A stretch of DNA of 64,000 nucleotides from Candidatus Omnitrophota bacterium (GTDB lineage: Bacteria > Omnitrophota > Gorgyraeia > Duberdicusellales > 4484-171). The notes under the pieces were generated by a model. It was not told the origin of the DNA. It saw only the letters and a list, made by a program, of their open reading frames with translations, and ran no database searches. The translations under genes and the position numbers were made by a program. The DNA lies in assembly GCA_021735655.1 (NCBI GenBank), contig JAIPGM010000002.1, forward strand, positions 128,001-192,000, written 5' to 3'. Below are positions 5,708-37,061 of this stretch, piece by piece (position 1 is the first letter of the stretch; the number at the start of each line of letters is the position of its first letter).

Positions 5708-6781
5708 ATGCAAATAGGGGTTATGGATTTTAAAAATAGTAAAAAGACTTTTACTTTAATTGAAATCGTTATTATTATCGTTATTATCGCTGTCTTAGCG
5801 ACCATAATGATTCCGGTTTATCTTAATACTATCGAAAAATCAAAGCGGACAGCTTGTGAAACAAATCAAAGAGTTCTCCTTGGAGCCTTAGAGTTGTACT
5901 CACTTGAGCATACAGTCTTACCGGCTTCCTTGAGTCAGTTGCCAGATAAGTATTACAAACAGGCCTGGGCAAAAGTTTTATCTGAGCCGGGAAGCTGGAA
6001 GGTAAGGTTGGCTTATGCGATTTCTGAGTTTAGTTTTCAGCAGTTAGCCTATGCGGCTAGTGATTGGTTGCATCAATACATCTCGCCGGCCGGACCAGTG
6101 TGTCCTTCTGATCGTACTCCGCCGCCGATGGACTATTCATATGGTTTAAGTTTTCAGTTTTTTGAAGCAACTGCATTTCAATTTAGAAATGCTAATCCTG
6201 ATGATCTTGTAATTGCCGATAGCAATGATCCAATTTTTTGGCGTCCCGAACCTAGGCATAAAAGTTATGGTATTTTCGGTGCTAATAGATACGGTATTAG
6301 TATTACTCGAGGAAATAAAATTATTTATTATCCGATAAAAAATGGCCAAGGCGATGAAGATGCTGCCGAGGGTATGGGAGGAGAGACCAACCGTTCTGCG
6401 GTTAGCAAACATGAGTGTAAGGTTAAGCGTTGCGCTACTCTTTGGCAAACAGATGATTGGGGTAGCTGTGTTCTTAATTGTGAATCAGCGGGGCCTATTG
6501 AGGATGATGAAGGCGAAAATGTGAACGAAGGCGTGGATGAAGACCATTGCTTTATTGCCACAGCTGCCTATGGGACGGTAATGGCTCAAGATGTAAGAGT
6601 GCTTTCTGAGTTTCGTGATAAGTATCTTTTAAATAATAGTTTTGGGAAAAGGTTTGTAGGAGTTTACTATCGGCTTAGTCCACCAGCTGCAGACTACATA
6701 CGAACTAGGCCGTATCTTAGGAGAGCTGTAAGGGCAATGCTGAAACCAGTGGTTTGGTTAGTAGGGCTCAGTCAAGAGTAA
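5708..6781 (+). CDS. Pilin-like secreted protein: a class III (prepilin) N-terminus, a Cys-containing middle region and a 77-aa CFIATAAYG-type C-terminal domain.
   Basis: KKTFTLIEIVIIIVIIAVLATI prepilin leader and hydrophobic helix. The more likely start is the internal ATG at 5723 (MDFKN...), which matches its paralog. The C-terminal domain CFIATAAYG...FRD.YLL...GR.FV.YY..SPP.A begins at 6548. Confidence 0.6.
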   Translation: MQIGVMDFKNSKKTFTLIEIVIIIVIIAVLATIMIPVYLNTIEKSKRTACETNQRVLLGALELYSLEHTVLPASLSQLPDKYYKQAWAKVLSEPGSWKVRLAYAISEFSFQQLAYAASDWLHQYISPAGPVCPSDRTPPPMDYSYGLSFQFFEATAFQFRNANPDDLVIADSNDPIFWRPEPRHKSYGIFGANRYGISITRGNKIIYYPIKNGQGDEDAAEGMGGETNRSAVSKHECKVKRCATLWQTDDWGSCVLNCESAGPIEDDEGENVNEGVDEDHCFIATAAYGTVMAQDVRVLSEFRDKYLLNNSFGKRFVGVYYRLSPPAADYIRTRPYLRRAVRAMLKPVVWLVGLSQE

Positions 6782-6840
6782 TTTGTATTTTTAGGGGTGT
6801 ATATTTGATAGGGGAGAGTATCTAGACATAAGGAGGAACT

Positions 6841-35200: not shown

Positions 35201-37061
35201 CTTAGTTGCTTATTATCCTCTTGAAAATAGCCTCGCTGATCTAAGCGGTAACGGAAATACCGCAACTACCAATGGCCTTAGCTTTACTTCTGGCAAATTC
35301 GGCCGGGGGGCCAGCTTTGACGGAAATGATTACATGCAAGTTCTTTCTTCAGCAAGCCTACCTTGGGGCGGGGCGTTACGGACTAACTATTCAATTGCTT
35401 ATTGGTTTAAGACTAGTGATCCGTATTCTGGTTTGCATGGTGTATATTCATTAGCTGCCGGAAGTAACGGGCATGATCGGCATCTTTATCTTTGGGCTGG
35501 TAATACTTATCAAAGAGTTTGGAGCAATCAGGTTATCAATACCCTAGGGGAGAATTATGCTGATAGTAAGTGGCACCATGTTGTTCAGTGGCTTAAATCT
35601 GGTGTTGCCCAAAGGACTTATATTGATGGCAAAGCAGTAGCTGCCGGATCAAAACATACCTCAGATTTCACCTGGCCGGATCGAATTTGGTTTGGTCATT
35701 CGGCTGACCGGGGTTATTTTACCGGGCTTCTTGATGATATCCGAATTTACAATCGGCCTTTATTCGATTTTGAAATTAAAAACTTAGCTAGCGGTTTAGT
35801 CGCCTATTACCCTTTTGAGGGCAATGCAACTGATGCTAGCGGGAATGGAAATCATGGAACTGAAGAAGGTGGCGTTTCTTATAGTGAAGCTGAGCCTGAT
35901 CGGGCTGCTGTTTTTGATGGTAGTAATGATTGCGTCAGCGTGAACAGTTTTGGTAATTTTGAAACAATGACCGTGTCAGCTATGGTTTACCGAACCGGCG
36001 CTACCAGCGCCCGAGAAAGCATAGTTTCCTACAAGGAAGGAGCTGGAGTAAATCAAGGTTTTGTGCTTTGTCTGAATGAAAACGGCTCTAGTCAATATCC
36101 ACGAATTTATGTTCAGGTCAATGGTGTTTGGCGAGCAGTCGAGCAGACCGTAGCGATCCCTCTGAATACTTGGGTCCATTTGGCAGCTTCTTATGATGGT
36201 ACAACCATAAGACTTTATCGAGACGGTGTTCAAGTTGCCTCTGGTAACTATGCCGGGAGTATGACTAATGATGGCTCACAGATGATCGGTATTGGTGCCC
36301 GGGCAAGTTTAAATACATATTGGTTTCCTGGGCAGATTGATGAGGTTAAAATTTGGAGCAGTGCTTTGGGTGCTGATGATATTAAAACTGAATATATTGA
36401 AGCAAATAATGGTCTAGTTGCTTACTACCCATTTGAGGGTGATGCGACTGATTTGAGTGGCTTGGGAAATCATGGAGTTGAAAGTGGGAATATTGCTTAT
36501 CTTCCCGGTAAATTCAGCCAGGCTAAGAATTTTGACGGAAACAATGATTATGTTAATTGTGGTAGTGATTTAAGCCTTGATTTAGGCGATTCTTTTACGA
36601 TTAGTGCTTGGATTAATCCCACGGTTTTAAAAAATTATGCTGGCATTGTTAGTAAAGATTCTAATCGAGGGGCACCCTACAGCTATCTGGCTGTTTCTCA
36701 TGGTTTAGGGTATATGGGTATTTATAATAATGCTGTCTGGCAGTGGTCTCATCCAGGATTAATTAGTACTGGTAAATGGCAGAATGTTATTTGGTTGCAT
36801 AAAAATGGTCAGCTTGGCTTTTTTGTCGATGGGGTATTATTTAATGTGATTTCGATGACTTATCCCGATGATCCTAGCGACAATACTTACATCGGCAGTT
36901 GGTCTCCCAGTTATGATTTTAATGGTTTAATTGATGACGTTAAAATTTGGAATCGAGCTATTTCCGATAAAGAAATCGGTGAGATAGTGGTGGATCCTTC
37001 ATCAGTTTCTACGCCGGCAGAAGGCCTTAAACCAGTATCTGGTACTTGGGGGGAAAGGTAA
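32250..37061 (+). CDS. Giant (1603 aa) PilX_N-like protein with 7 tandem LamG repeats, a paralog of 25623..28586.
   Basis: N-terminus QTLLYVGFVLLAVAMITTIV...GKGAEAYQLAMAGIERAK. Seven GLVAYYPFEGNA.D.SG.GNHGT...IDEVKIWNRAL repeats. The C-terminus LKPVSGTWGER is identical to the shorter paralog. Confidence 0.6.
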   Translation: MKLKTSKTQTLLYVGFVLLAVAMITTIVITGTISSIKTANQQGKGAEAYQLAMAGIERAKTELTANWDTWTMDTLLDEDPHRGDTTGLDETEALGEGQYWVRVLDTVPADPDKLWIISHGWVDDAHRIIEVEFQRPTVAALDPSLVAHYPFEGDATDLSIYENHGIEAGNIAYGVGKFGRAKRFDGNGDYVDCGTDPSLDLGGSFTISAWVNPTVLESYAGIVSKDSNRWSPYSYMAVTHGSYMGIFDNAAWRFSAPGVISANTWHHLVWVHQSGTVTLYVDRALVGTSLMLDTDDPNDNTYIGSWYSGHTAYDFNGYIDEVKIWNRALNIAEIEAENRRTDPIAHYPFEGNAFDASGNGNNGTEGGDIAYSTGKIDQAKNFDGSGDYALIPATSNFDLQDMTISCWTYSDNYDANMFMFEKTTNDSVNTQYSLFFNGGGSSSQIYFRTYGLSAVNLVATDHANGPVDGQYNHIAATYTSATGTKKIYCNGNEIATVSGLSGTINTNPAGTSWIGAYGGGAGYPFNGQIDDLKIWNRALTADEVRAEFIEGNDGLVAYYPFEGNANDLSGIGNHGTQFGNVSYGTGKFGRAKFFDGSGDYVDCGSDSSLDFSNAFTISAWINPTTLKNYAGVVSKDSNRWSPYSYMAVSHGSGYMGIYSGGWLWAAASPGLIQVNNWSHLTWVYQNNLIYFYIDGAPVGTSAMAYTDDPNDNTYIGSWYSGGTGYDFRGYIDEVKIWNKALSADEIAENYRGGVTAQSIRQGLVADYPFENNSWADLSGLGNDGTAQGGASFVADGQVGQAASFDGINDRVIVDDDPSISGLNAVTVSAWIRAQDFGVGGDYNFVATKSNWDDNREYRIRIENGNTLVWHISNDGNDPGGAENSIPVAGNLNLNQWHHLVGTYSDTDSLCRLYVDGSLKDTDTCEAGGIFNGTANLAIGGSGDNGASGNQDDFHGRVDEVKIWNRALGVDEIEWLYANEVGNNGLVAYYPLENSLADLSGNGNTATTNGLSFTSGKFGRGASFDGNDYMQVLSSASLPWGGALRTNYSIAYWFKTSDPYSGLHGVYSLAAGSNGHDRHLYLWAGNTYQRVWSNQVINTLGENYADSKWHHVVQWLKSGVAQRTYIDGKAVAAGSKHTSDFTWPDRIWFGHSADRGYFTGLLDDIRIYNRPLFDFEIKNLASGLVAYYPFEGNATDASGNGNHGTEEGGVSYSEAEPDRAAVFDGSNDCVSVNSFGNFETMTVSAMVYRTGATSARESIVSYKEGAGVNQGFVLCLNENGSSQYPRIYVQVNGVWRAVEQTVAIPLNTWVHLAASYDGTTIRLYRDGVQVASGNYAGSMTNDGSQMIGIGARASLNTYWFPGQIDEVKIWSSALGADDIKTEYIEANNGLVAYYPFEGDATDLSGLGNHGVESGNIAYLPGKFSQAKNFDGNNDYVNCGSDLSLDLGDSFTISAWINPTVLKNYAGIVSKDSNRGAPYSYLAVSHGLGYMGIYNNAVWQWSHPGLISTGKWQNVIWLHKNGQLGFFVDGVLFNVISMTYPDDPSDNTYIGSWSPSYDFNGLIDDVKIWNRAISDKEIGEIVVDPSSVSTPAEGLKPVSGTWGER

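Follow-up and report, generated by a model that had tools for sequence, protein, structure and literature searches.

Is the block of pilus-like genes at positions 5,708 to 37,061 of a 64-kb stretch of DNA (the window) from an uncultured Omnitrophota bacterium an inserted island, as a sequence-only reading of the DNA had proposed, and what kind of machine does it encode? Profile HMM searches of the open reading frames (ORFs) identify a gene cluster for a type IV pilus that is ordinary for the most part, with all genes on the + strand (Table 1); its distinctive trait is a set of tip subunits with swappable arrays of sugar-binding-like domains. The gene content listed by the sequence-only reading is real: the HMMs confirm PilB, PilC, PilM, a secretin and pilins, together with 12 LamG domains and the CHASE2-HD-GYP, MerR, ABC ATPase and HExxH proteins, and that reading was right to describe a type IV pilus / T2SS-like cluster whose PilX-like proteins are laden with LamG domains. 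As judged from its genes, the locus is best read as encoding an adhesive pilus of T4aP/MSHA-like type whose tips are lectin-like, a reading that we moderately favor.

Table 1 Features of the pilus locus, numbered from the first nucleotide of the window.
Feature	Position	Strand	Evidence
Atypical pilin-like protein, C-terminal CFI-box-CTERM domain	5708..6781	+	CFI_box_CTERM (NCBIfam) 94.8 bits, cutoff 40
Paralogue of 5708..6781, Cys-rich C-terminal tail	6841..7845	+	GspG E 1.5e-11
CHASE2 sensor fused to HD-GYP c-di-GMP phosphodiesterase domain	8059..10329	+	CHASE2 134.3, HD_5 143.5 bits
MerR-type HTH protein, 61 residues	10513..10698	+	MerR_1 37.1 bits
Small bitopic periplasmic protein, PilP/GspC-like by position only	10695..11144	+	CdsD_C sub-threshold, 24.9 bits, E 2e-5
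HExxH protein (DUF8575), secreted or membrane-anchored, C-terminal DUF5684 membrane domain	11179..13689	+	Precomputed Pfam; DUF5684 61.3 bits
Secretin N-terminal half (STN/N0 + N1), own signal peptide	13721..14488	+	STN 31.6, Secretin_N 24 bits
Secretin core, own signal peptide	14527..16830	+	Secretin_N; Secretin 149.7, TPR_2 49.6 bits
Extension ATPase (PilB/MshE-like)	16846..18567	+	T2SSE 449.6, MshEN 72.3 bits
Pilin, canonical G/FTLIE	18608..19300	+	N_methyl 30.2 bits
GspG-like pilin, probable start 19420	19375..19992	+	N_methyl 35.3 bits; GspG E 2e-12; canonical G/FTLIE
Intrinsic-terminator-like hairpin	20012..20041	+	13-bp stem, 7 GC pairs, then T run
Second GspG-like pilin, paralogue of 19375..19992	20295..20879	+	N_methyl 30.6 bits; GspG E 1.9e-14; canonical G/FTLIE
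ABC transporter ATPase	20957..21667	+	ABC_tran 93.7 bits
Polytopic membrane protein, presumed ABC permease	21664..22425	+	Conservation, adjacency
TPR protein	22383..23294	+	TPR matches in PDB, E 2.3e-11
GspH/FimU-like minor pilin, probable start 23296 or 23314	23227..23841	+	GspH E 1e-5; IV_pilin_GFxxxE 19.2 bits (cutoff 16.3)
GspI/PilV-like minor pilin	23838..24377	+	ComGE E 8.6e-7; PilV E 3e-5
GspJ/PilW-like minor pilin + one C-terminal LamG domain	24377..25648	+	Laminin_G_3 91.8 bits
GspK/PilX-like tip pilin, 987 residues, probable start 25641	25623..28586	+	4 LamG domains, 364 bits
Platform protein PilC/GspF	28620..29819	+	T2SSF 147.9 bits, two stretches
PilM-PilN fusion, GspL-like architecture	29821..31494	+	PilM_2 38.8 bits
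PilO/GspM-like bitopic protein	31487..32182	+	Position, topology; GspM E 0.0033 only
Second GspK/PilX-like tip pilin, 1603 residues	32250..37061	+	Laminin_G_3 553.8 bits, 7 stretches

The idea of an island inserted between housekeeping blocks had a ready basis in the housekeeping genes that bracket this large block. However, the cluster also occurs, and at the corresponding site, in relatives whose PilB is 74-87% identical (L082, L084, L087, L088, L089, L095 and L097), with aroA-FAH-yjbQ on the left and valS-nadC-uvrB-coaX on the right as common flanks. On the left side, L089 has lspA-rluD-aroA-FAH-yjbQ and L097 has aroA; on the right side, L082 has valS-nadC-uvrB-coaX and L084 has valS-nadC. 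The GC content is 0.399 in the locus and 0.384 in the flanks, the tetranucleotide correlation is flank-like except in the LamG genes (r 0.63-0.66), and the borders held no tRNA and, among the ORFs scanned, no integrase. In favor of recent acquisition are the deviant LamG genes, the lack of pil genes upstream of valS in more distant Omnitrophota (ValS 51-56% identical), and the occurrence of the cluster after groEL in L092. Against it stand flanks and gene order that are common to relatives down to 74% PilB identity, machinery genes of flank-like composition, and the borders just described; a recently acquired genomic island is thus highly improbable, and the same-site clusters together with the composition of the machinery genes largely refute it. 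The locus is instead a conserved chromosomal one whose position is vertically conserved and in which turnover is limited to certain pilin genes and to the modules of the adhesins. Within the clade the region is core but not invariant: the two atypical pilins together with the HD-GYP gene, the passengers of the minor pilins and the gene for the 1603-residue protein vary. Compact versions of ~10 kb (L091, L092) are the commoner form, of which the present locus is a threefold expansion.

The assignments of PilB and PilC are supported by the T2SSE and T2SSF profiles, respectively. The extension ATPase scored 623 bits against PilB (cutoff 676) and 588 bits against GspE (cutoff 630), the platform protein scored 286 bits against GspF, under the cutoff, and the secretin core scored 217, 193 and 181 bits against GspD, PilQ and MshL, each under its own cutoff. 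Because the ATPase, platform and secretin reach none of the equivalog cutoffs for PilB, GspE, PilC, GspF, PilQ, GspD and MshL, we leave the filament subtype unassigned; the locus is that of a type IV filament that appears closest to T4aP/MSHA-type pili, with some T2SS-like traits. What had been taken for a secretin pair is indeed a secretin, but a single one split over two ORFs (13721-14488 and 14527-16830), the first of which matches the PilQ N-terminus (E 1.8e-14) and the second of which has a C-terminal extension of ~400 residues that is Lys/Glu-rich and contains four TPR-like repeats. The two-ORF arrangement recurs in L087, L088, L089, L092, L095 and L097, and a single ORF is present in L091.

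Support for the alignment proteins is uneven. In the PilM-PilN fusion, which is 552-562 residues long in all relatives, the PilM half holds by its PilM_2 match; the PilN half is weaker than claimed, its best PDB profile match being M. xanthus PilN (3jc8; E 0.0037) and its NFLP motif being invariant. The PilO label is likewise weaker than claimed, its basis being a GspM match (E 0.003) and a place in the cluster: a PDB search lent it no support, it is conserved after PilMN in L082, L084 and L092, and the gene at this position in L091 (189 residues) gave no tblastn match. The basis of the PilP-like label, also overstated, is the sub-threshold CdsD_C match alone; a PDB sequence search returned no matches, and in relatives the small gene always lies between the MerR gene and that for the DUF8575 protein or secretin. 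As the sequence-only reading had stated, neither a Peptidase_A24 (PilD) gene nor a PilT-type gene was found in the 64-kb window (ORFs of at least 80 residues scanned). Both genes were also missing from the sequence retrieved for eight related loci, and pilin processing and retraction are therefore only putative here.

Both atypical pilin-like proteins at the head of the locus match N_methyl below threshold and have T or V, not G, before FTLIE. The first (T; N_methyl 19.9 bits, under the cutoff) has N-terminal GspG/ComGC matches (E 1e-10) and a full-length orthologue, 63% identical, in L095. The first 300 nt of the gene for the second are an 86% identical DNA repeat (D5) of the gene for the first, and Cys-rich-tailed orthologues of the second occur in L095 and L097. 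Among the canonical pilins, that at 18608..19300 has orthologues in relatives that are 45-57% identical, and the two GspG-like paralogues have repeat D11 in common. The pilin encoded by 19420-19992, for which the L001 gene call suggested the start, is probably the major fibre subunit; the hairpin directly after its gene is the strongest terminator-like structure in the locus. As for the proposed minor-pilin set, the GspH-like and GspI/PilV-like matches are weak, and the GspJ-like protein carries one LamG domain. The GspI/PilV-like orthologues in L095 and L097 have 170-177 residues, and genes at the I position elsewhere encode 460 (L087/L088) or 350 (L089) residues. Conservation of the GspJ-like protein is limited to its N-terminal ~212 residues, and relatives' versions span 221-514 residues.

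The K-like gene lies just upstream of pilC, and the order H-I-J-K, then pilC, holds in every relative. The two giant LamG proteins reported to have PilX-like N-termini were confirmed, with four and seven LamG domains; the giants match PilX_N at E 0.021 only, and distant members of the family exceed the PilX_N cutoff. The N-modules of the two proteins are 56% identical, and domain 6 of the 1603-residue protein shares 74% identity with domain 3 of the 987-residue one. No counterpart of the longer gene lies between PilO and valS in L082 or L084; it is a lineage-specific extra copy. Each K-like tip pilin keeps a pilin module of ~135 residues and a terminal 'GTWxE' strand ('SGTWGER' in the 987-residue protein, with the LamG domains inserted before it), and what lies between them depends on the lineage: no passenger at all, 1-7 LamG domains, or a beta-propeller of the NHL type. 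Among close relatives we found a bare protein of 169 residues (L083), propeller passengers (L082, L087, L088, L089), one LamG domain (P0003, P0007), and a propeller plus four LamG domains (P0008). A set of 1.84 billion proteins yielded no more than 39 cluster representatives of the family, 125-1603 residues long, and a conserved W-x-E strand ends nearly all members, bare or loaded. For a one-LamG member, the predicted N-module consists of four strands and a long helix (pLDDT 88-97), and confidence was low for the pairing of the terminal strand in the model of the loaded member. The K-like core has GspK/XcpX as its nearest fold; the match to the GspK HMM is marginal (E 8e-4; 19 bits, cutoff 130). 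No G(-1)/E5 signature is present in the K-like proteins, and E5 is likewise missing from GspK; the K-like proteins are thus putative fibre subunits. The LamG fold is generic, and MshQ contains LamG-type domains.

Both Omnitrophota T4aP and modular pilins are already known, and the present locus is a variant of them. T4aP clusters are near-universal in the phylum: Seymour et al. 2023 (PMC10066038) reported them for most genomes of every Omnitrophota class (4/9 in one small class) and took them to be devices with which ultra-small, host-dependent cells attach. These share with our locus the phylum and the core genes in one cluster; in the portions of that survey on which we draw, tip-pilin passengers, a split secretin, a DUF8575 HExxH protein and an ABC/TPR trio are undescribed, and our locus does not lie beside the 'symbiotic' F-type ATPase highlighted there. 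The V. cholerae MSHA system (PMC7096442, PMC12918778) resembles ours in the MshEN motif of its extension ATPase, in a locus without its own retraction ATPase, and in a very large protein that is associated with H/I/J/K-type minor pilins and whose extreme C-terminal strand has been proposed as the element completing the K subunit (PMC12918778). However, the large adhesin is separate there and fused to the K pilin here, and our secretin is under the MshL cutoff (181 versus 250 bits). More generally, the PilK/GspK sheet is completed by a C-terminal beta-strand supplied either in cis (GspK, CpaL) or by PilY1/MshQ (PMC12918778). In the T2SS tip GspI-GspJ-GspK (PDB 3ci0, 5vtm), GspK has one small alpha-domain, whereas the K-like insert ranges from 0 to ~1450 residues and consists of a beta-propeller or LamG repeats. 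Caulobacter CpaL/TadG has the same topology, in which a minor-pilin-like domain at the N-terminus is followed by a large middle part that can be dispensed with and, at the extreme C-terminus, by a strand folding back on the N-domain (PMC12918778), but CpaL belongs to a Tad (T4c) machinery and has no detectable sequence relation to the K-like proteins, and natural 'delta-middle' variants of the K-like proteins occupy the same locus in relatives. [quoted passage not shown] There, however, the module follows the pilin module, whereas here it precedes the last strand, forms arrays of four and seven that are exchanged between close relatives, and occurs in a diderm with a secretin.

We propose that the PilB/MshE-like ATPase, the PilC platform, the PilM-PilN fusion with its PilO-like partner and the two-piece secretin, a machine identified by HMMs, would assemble GspG-like pilins into a fibre, with 19420-19992 the likely major subunit. 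Gene order, fold and family comparison suggest that the GspH/I/J/K-like set would prime assembly. With a passenger spliced between the K-like module and its terminal strand (four LamG domains in one copy, seven in the second) and one further LamG domain on the J-like subunit, up to 12 diverged lectin-like domains would thus be exposed at the fibre tip, where they may recognize glycans on particles or on the cells of a host or prey. The swappable arrays probably set what the cell adheres to.

An unlikely alternative is a T2SS-like machine for secretion or surface display, in which no long pilus is made and the H/I/J/K-like set caps a short pseudopilus that pushes substrates through the secretin; the LamG proteins themselves and the HExxH protein would be candidate substrates. 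Consistent with it are the top scores of pilins against GspG and of the platform against GspF, the GspL architecture of the PilM-PilN fusion with its faintly GspM-like partner, the GspK-like fold of the K-like core, the absence of PilT from the locus in every relative, as far as the retrieved sequence reaches, and the T2SS-like loci reported to adjoin large adhesin-like genes in Omnitrophota (10.1101/2023.11.21.568195). The ATPase, however, scores highest against PilB and has an MshE-type c-di-GMP motif, there is no GspC, several pilin genes are present, one with the strong terminator expected of an abundant fibre subunit, and four to seven lectin-like domains on a tip subunit suit reach and adhesion, not a piston. 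Less probable still, the LamG giants may be membrane-anchored or secreted adhesins with a similar hydrophobic N-helix that are co-regulated with the pilus genes; the missing G(-1)/E5 motif, the PilX_N score and the low-confidence terminal strand of the loaded model would fit. Their gene nevertheless holds the K position in every relative, bare orthologues of 130-170 residues fill the same slot, loaded and bare members have the terminal strand in common, and the fold match is to GspK/XcpX. Weak ComGC, ComGD and ComGE matches at pilin N-termini and the lack of a retraction ATPase in the locus bring to mind a competence (DNA-uptake) pseudopilus, but these matches are confined to the generic N-terminal helix, ComEA, ComEC and DprA are absent from the window, and a secretin and lectin arrays are ill-suited to a Com-type system, making this reading very improbable.

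The adhesive pilus that we favor is probably under c-di-GMP control, to judge from the sequences of two of its genes. The ATPase has intact tandem MshEN c-di-GMP-binding motifs (residues 24-76; NF053729 58 bits, cutoff 38), and the translated sensor at the head of the locus contains HD and GYP motifs; c-di-GMP may thus gate extension, with the CHASE2-HD-GYP phosphodiesterase as part of the putative circuit. The sensor gene lies upstream of the MerR gene in L087, L095 and L097 and is absent in L089. Control of the V. cholerae MSHA pilus by c-di-GMP is documented (PMC7096442).

Several further genes had been regarded as non-canonical passengers, which they are not: the MerR, small PilP-like, DUF8575, ABC ATPase, permease and TPR proteins keep their positions in four lineages at 52-90% identity and are conserved members of the cluster. 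The MerR-type protein is 79-90% identical in L087, L089, L095 and L097 and 58-67% in L091, L092 and L093; in the same first four the ABC ATPase is 63-85% identical. The presumed permease, for which HMM searches gave no match, is 56-81% identical in relatives and always adjoins the ATPase, and the TPR protein has a GspG-like C-terminal 'IP.DPFGGGYYL' motif that is invariant in an alignment of five orthologues. The HExxH protein scored 104.7 bits against the Hvo_1808 family, under the cutoff, and HE.(V/A)HAFQD is invariant in 9/9 homologues; the microsynteny small protein-DUF8575-secretin N half-secretin persists even in the distant L093. This periplasmic protein and the ABC ATPase/permease/TPR trio are clade-specific accessories. 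A similar gene context is found in Myxococcus xanthus, where PilG/PilH/PilI place an ABC ATPase and its membrane partner(s) within a T4aP cluster (PMC6060248).

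Between yjbQ and valS we found 23 ORFs plus one of 61 codons, within a window that is low in GC (0.35–0.45) and has almost all of its genes on the + strand (see table). Pfam and NCBIfam HMMs run on the ORFs bore out the core of the gene list from the sequence-only reading. In particular, the ATPase matched T2SSE (449.6 bits) and carries an MshEN domain, the PilC platform protein matched T2SSF (147.9 bits, two stretches), and the ABC ATPase (ABC_tran, 93.7 bits), the MerR-like regulator (MerR_1, 37 bits) and the CHASE2-HD-GYP sensor (CHASE2, 134 bits; HD_5, 143 bits) were present as listed. 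Laminin_G_3 likewise confirmed the two giant LamG-repeat proteins (364 bits in four stretches for the 987-residue protein and 554 bits in seven for the 1603-residue protein), and matched the 423-residue GspJ/PilW-like (J-like) protein at 91.8 bits. Other assignments needed refinement. PilM and PilN form a single fused protein, as proposed, with the PilM half recognized by PilM_2 (38.8 bits; cutoff, 27); the PilN half is more weakly assigned, its own HMM being silent, through the best PDB match of the C-terminal-half profile (M. xanthus PilN, E = 0.0037) and an invariant NFLP motif of the NLLP type. The HMMs for PilO and PilP were also silent, and the names PilO-like and PilP-like draw on a GspM match (E = 0.0033), a sub-threshold CdsD_C match, position and topology; profile and single-sequence PDB searches with these two proteins were uninformative. 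The supposed pair of secretins is one secretin (149.7 bits) split over two ORFs, each with a signal peptide. Of the five pilin-like genes, three are canonical (N_methyl, 30–35 bits), with a class III signal peptide readable as G|FTLIE in their translations; the two at 5708 and 6841 are atypical, having T or V instead of G before FTLIE, and end in a CFI-box-CTERM domain (94.8 bits) and a Cys-rich tail, respectively. The 64-kb window lacks PilD and PilT, as had been noted, and its genes outside the locus are housekeeping genes: there is no Peptidase_A24 in the scanned window ORFs or in the parts of related loci that were fetched, and the window and each such part contain one secretion ATPase only.

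The atypical pilin-like family upstream of the HD-GYP gene occurs also in two related loci (L095, 1–1259; L097, 1094–1873), with T, V or A preceding FTLIE. Its C-terminal tails are interchangeable, being either CFI-box-CTERM followed by a terminal hydrophobic helix or rich in Cys (CxxxC type), and the union of a pilin N-terminus with a C-terminal sorting-type domain in one protein is topologically odd.

Coordinates of features in the window (strand and length where reported)
Feature	Positions	Strand	Remarks
yjbQ	5213-5629		UPF0047
pil locus	5708-37061	+
Atypical pilin-like family	5708-7845		upstream of HD-GYP gene
Small PilP-like protein	10695-11144
DUF8575 (HExxH) protein	11179-13689
Secretin, first ORF	13721-14488		STN/N0 + N1
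Secretin, second ORF	14527-16830		N1 + secretin core + ~400-residue tail
Likely major pilin	19420-19992		followed by terminator-like hairpin
ABC ATPase	20957-21667
Presumed permease	21664-22425
TPR protein	22383-23294
H-like minor pilin	23227-23841
I-like minor pilin	23838-24377
J-like minor pilin	24377-25648		423 residues
K-like pilin	25623-28586		987 residues
LamG unit 3 of 987-residue protein	27315-27614
K-like pilin, second copy	32250-37061		1603 residues
LamG unit 6 of 1603-residue protein	35793-36092
valS	37157-39784
PAS-PAS-HD-GYP protein	45569-46921
SurA_N/Rotamase_2 protein	50951-52363	-
tmRNA	52542-52899		157 bits
tRNA	53866-53939
RVT_3/RNase H match	54702-55094
DUF4139/DUF4140 protein	60109-61797

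The locus had been described as an island inserted between housekeeping blocks, a view that did not hold up. In distant Omnitrophota, the valS-nadC(-uvrB-coaX) block is kept with no pil genes within 10 kb upstream, and full-length ValS identity to the species representatives of the genome collection does not exceed 56%, the best matches being mostly Omnitrophota MAGs. Insertion inferred from these distant genomes alone is wrong: closer relatives, reached through metagenome and exact-protein look-ups, carry the cluster at the same site (related loci L082, L084, L089 and L097). The left flank of L089 (PilB 74% identical) reads lspA-rluD-aroA-FAH-yjbQ and leads into a cluster with the order MerR, small protein, DUF8575, secretin N half, secretin, PilB, two pilins, ABC ATPase, permease, TPR protein, minor pilins, PilC and PilMN, and L097 (PilB 85%) begins at aroA. 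The right end of L082 (PilC 81%, ValS 67%) runs K-like pilin, PilC, PilMN, PilO and then valS-nadC-uvrB-coaX, that of L084 agrees as far as nadC, and internal gene order is identical in L087, L088, L095 and L096 (86–87%). Composition is flank-like, with a GC content of 0.399 inside the locus versus 0.384 outside and tetranucleotide correlations with the flanks of 0.87–0.92 in all 4-kb blocks except the two LamG blocks (0.63 and 0.66), and the locus borders show no integrase among the scanned adjoining ORFs and no tRNA. At greater distance the cluster is compact (~10–12 kb) and located elsewhere (after groEL in L092, beside glycosyltransferases in L091), without the ABC ATPase, permease and TPR protein (the ABC trio) and with small minor pilins. 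From the same flanks and order in close relatives, the composition and the compact distant versions, we conclude that the locus was inherited at a fixed site in this clade, which expanded it about threefold. The combination of atypical composition, mobility genes or a tRNA, and patchy presence that marks a genomic island was not found, and recent acquisition as such an island is very improbable. Nor do the presumed non-canonical passengers behave as passengers, given that the identity of MerR (79–90%), the ABC ATPase (63–85%), the permease (56–81%) and the TPR protein (52–70%) to relatives is high, as is that of the machinery (PilB, 74–87%; PilC, 72–81%); the pilins are less conserved (39–67%). 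One relative, L089, has a 124-residue 23S_rRNA_IVP (four-helix-bundle) gene among its minor-pilin genes (16102–16476).

The gene directly upstream of pilC encodes a GspK/PilX-like (K-like) protein that always has the same N-terminal ~135 residues, and the two window copies are 56% identical to each other in this N-module. A word-indexed homologue search with the 140-residue N-module gave no match, and 1.84 billion cluster representatives therefore had to be searched exhaustively with HMMER (E <= 1e-3), which returned just 39 proteins. About two thirds of these are bare (125–175 residues), the remainder being 299–1603 residues long, and bare and long members alike keep a final strand of the type GTWGER, GTWRER, GSWRKP, GTWSEI or SWREI. 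Because this end strand is shared, the extra material must lie after the pilin-like module and before the last strand. At this slot L083 carries nothing (169 residues), L082, L087, L088 and L089 carry an NHL/Vgb-lyase-type beta-propeller, two related proteins (P0003 and P0007) carry one LamG domain, a third (P0008) carries a propeller plus four LamG domains, and the window copies carry four and seven LamG domains. The proteins encoded at this position in the compact L091 and L092 clusters, 130 and 147 residues long, can be aligned with the bare members. Three distant family members pass the Pfam PilX_N cutoff, and in a member with one LamG domain the N-module is modelled as a long helix and four strands (pLDDT 88–97), which matches a GspK/PilX-type pilin fold (a long N-terminal helix and small beta-sheet without E5). 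An extreme C-terminal beta-strand of its own that completes the sheet is a trait of GspK/PilX-type tip pilins (Ellison et al. 2026). The C-terminal W-x-E motif is kept whether a member is bare or loaded; the model of the bare form has predicted terminal strands, and their pairing in the loaded model is a low-confidence prediction. Profile and single-sequence PDB searches with the N-module were uninformative, and Foldseek matches of the one-LamG model, all to lectin folds and neurotoxin Hc domains, were driven by LamG and silent on the pilin module. The I-like and J-like neighbors also vary in size among relatives (170–460 and 221–514 residues), only their N-terminal parts being kept.

Pilins are joined to non-pilus modules in the J-like and both K-like proteins (LamG) and in orthologues (NHL/Vgb_lyase propellers). 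Delimited at a repeated YYPFEG boundary, the LamG arrays comprise 1 + 4 + 7 = 12 units of about 200–220 residues each, most pairs of which are merely 28–40% identical. One pair spans the two giant genes, unit 3 of the 987-residue protein and unit 6 of the 1603-residue one, and stands apart with 74% protein and 72% DNA identity, which points to recent exchange between the two tip-pilin genes. The 1603-residue gene lies between PilO and valS and is absent in L082 and L084; this second K-like copy is lineage-specific and appears to have swapped one or more LamG units with the 987-residue gene. The NCBIfam model for the TafC family fimbrial protein (NF052521; cutoff, 410) gave repeated partial matches to the LamG units (24377–37061) at 113–220 bits.

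The DUF8575 protein carries a signal peptide; its HE.(V/A)HAFQD motif is invariant in nine of nine homologues, and even the distant second locus L093 retains the series small protein, DUF8575, secretin N half, secretin; PDB searches with profile and single sequence were uninformative for this protein as well. Our guess is that it acts at the secretin/outer-membrane subcomplex. The ABC trio is reminiscent of the M. xanthus PilGHI genes, which lie within a pil cluster (PMC6060248), an analogy by gene content. Its TPR protein ends in an invariant RLP..L.EL....I..IP.DPFGGGYYL segment that resembles a GspG-type pseudopilin core, yet the protein has no pilin N-terminus. The secretin tail (residues ~380–767) is Lys/Glu-rich with four similar TPR-like repeats (Y..A..LY....Y.EA..KFQ.....PGY....YYL..IP) and could be a fused pilotin-like module. 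Tail length differs among the secretins of relatives (731–889 residues), and that of L091 is tail-less and unsplit (567 residues). The DUF8575 metalloprotease-like protein, the two-piece TPR-tailed secretin and the ABC trio are three conserved parts outside standard pilus models.

None of the curated cutoffs of PilB, GspE, PilC, GspF, PilQ, GspD or MshL was reached, the top models being PilB (623.1 bits; cutoff, 675.65) for the ATPase, and GspF. Since every core protein falls below these cutoffs, we file the locus as a type IV filament system within the T4aP/MSH/T2SS branch and assign it to no single subtype. GspG-like pilins, the GspL-like fusion, the GspK-like tip and a locus without PilT would all suit a T2SS-like pseudopilus; at equivalog level the T2SS models fell short (GspD, 217 bits against 351; GspE, 588.4 against 630.25; GspF, 286 against 424; GspG, at most 54 against 89), GspC had no match in the locus, GspL is represented by architecture only, and we regard such a pseudopilus as unlikely. 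A competence pilus is a far more doubtful assignment of the same proteins. That the LamG giants are stand-alone adhesins is improbable.

Starting from the observed elements (the parts list, the conservation pattern, the K-like core fold, the intact tandem MshEN motifs and the HD-GYP domain), we propose that the type IV filament machine polymerizes a GspG-like pilin whose likely major subunit gene is followed by a terminator-like hairpin stronger than any other in the stretch of the locus that was scanned, that assembly would be initiated at an H/I/J/K-type tip complex, and that the tip would display the LamG arrays as adhesins. Completion of the K-subunit sheet by a terminal beta-strand has been proposed to license assembly; GspK and CpaL provide this strand in cis, PilY1 or MshQ in trans (PMC12918778). 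The Omnitrophota K-like proteins have exactly the CpaL-like topology, with the bare relatives as natural 'delta-middle' forms, and the locus is a natural comparative series for the proposed licensing rule. S. sanguinis PilC provides a precedent for a lectin-type module on a pilin (PMC8179133, PMC9934059).

The MshEN assignment is supported by NF053729 (58 bits; cutoff, 38; ATPase residues 24–76) and by both tandem 24-residue RLGxx(L/V/I)(L/V/I)xxG...LxxxLxxQ motifs, which are readable in the translation, as are the HD and GYP motifs of the sensor. High c-di-GMP would favor extension via the predicted MshEN domain, as it does for the V. cholerae MSHA pilus (PMC7096442), and the CHASE2-HD-GYP sensor, whose gene stands at the head of the locus, may lower c-di-GMP upon an outside signal. 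Scanned with Rfam, the locus showed neither a c-di-GMP riboswitch nor any other RNA element. In L093 (1–15120), from a distant member of Omnitrophota, two secretin genes, a PilB-PilC pair, a histidine kinase, a response regulator, PilZ and an MshEN-PilZ fusion are present, and the signaling genes adjoin the module made up of MerR, the small protein, DUF8575 and the split secretin, which suggests heavier c-di-GMP wiring.

Omnitrophota are abundant, uncultured and mostly ultra-small, and are thought to live attached to other cells. In phages, host range is set by tail-fibre swapping. Candidates for partner recognition here are 12 diverged lectin-like domains on predicted tip subunits, where sister lineages have beta-propellers or nothing instead. 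The slot holds nothing, an NHL propeller, or one, four or seven LamG domains, and the pilin module and the putative licensing strand are kept. Tentatively, and with well under even confidence in the whole, we suggest that the H/I/J/K tip is a swappable scaffold on which whole receptor-binding arrays are exchanged at a fixed slot, setting host or prey range, and that DUF8575 is a new dedicated component. If so, the tip cassette would set the host or prey range of ultra-small, host-dependent cells much as swapped tail fibres do. T4aP clusters are known to be near-universal in Omnitrophota and are read as attachment devices of host-dependent nanobacteria (PMC10066038). Omnitrophota pili, modular pilins, licensing by a K-subunit strand and control through MshEN are already known, and it is the particular combination that is new: a rare K-pilin family whose insert, by sequence comparison, appears to be exchanged among close relatives at a syntenic slot, tip-subunit LamG arrays of four and seven domains, a TPR-tailed secretin whose two-piece form is conserved, and clade-specific accessories.

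Elsewhere in the window, the tmRNA and the one tRNA lie well outside the pil locus, and the DUF4139/DUF4140 gene, between ahcY and pfkA, is unrelated to it. The RVT_3/RNase H match was considered as a possible part of a DGR or retroelement, a reading we dropped: the gene is of ordinary RNase HI size and distant from the LamG genes. A second HD-GYP protein is encoded directly after groEL, the position that the pil cluster occupies in L092. The window's sole sizeable minus-strand gene encodes the SurA_N/Rotamase_2 peptidyl-prolyl isomerase, and a Rotamase_2 PPIase has been reported as a conserved neighbor of Omnitrophota T2SS-like loci (10.1101/2023.11.21.568195).
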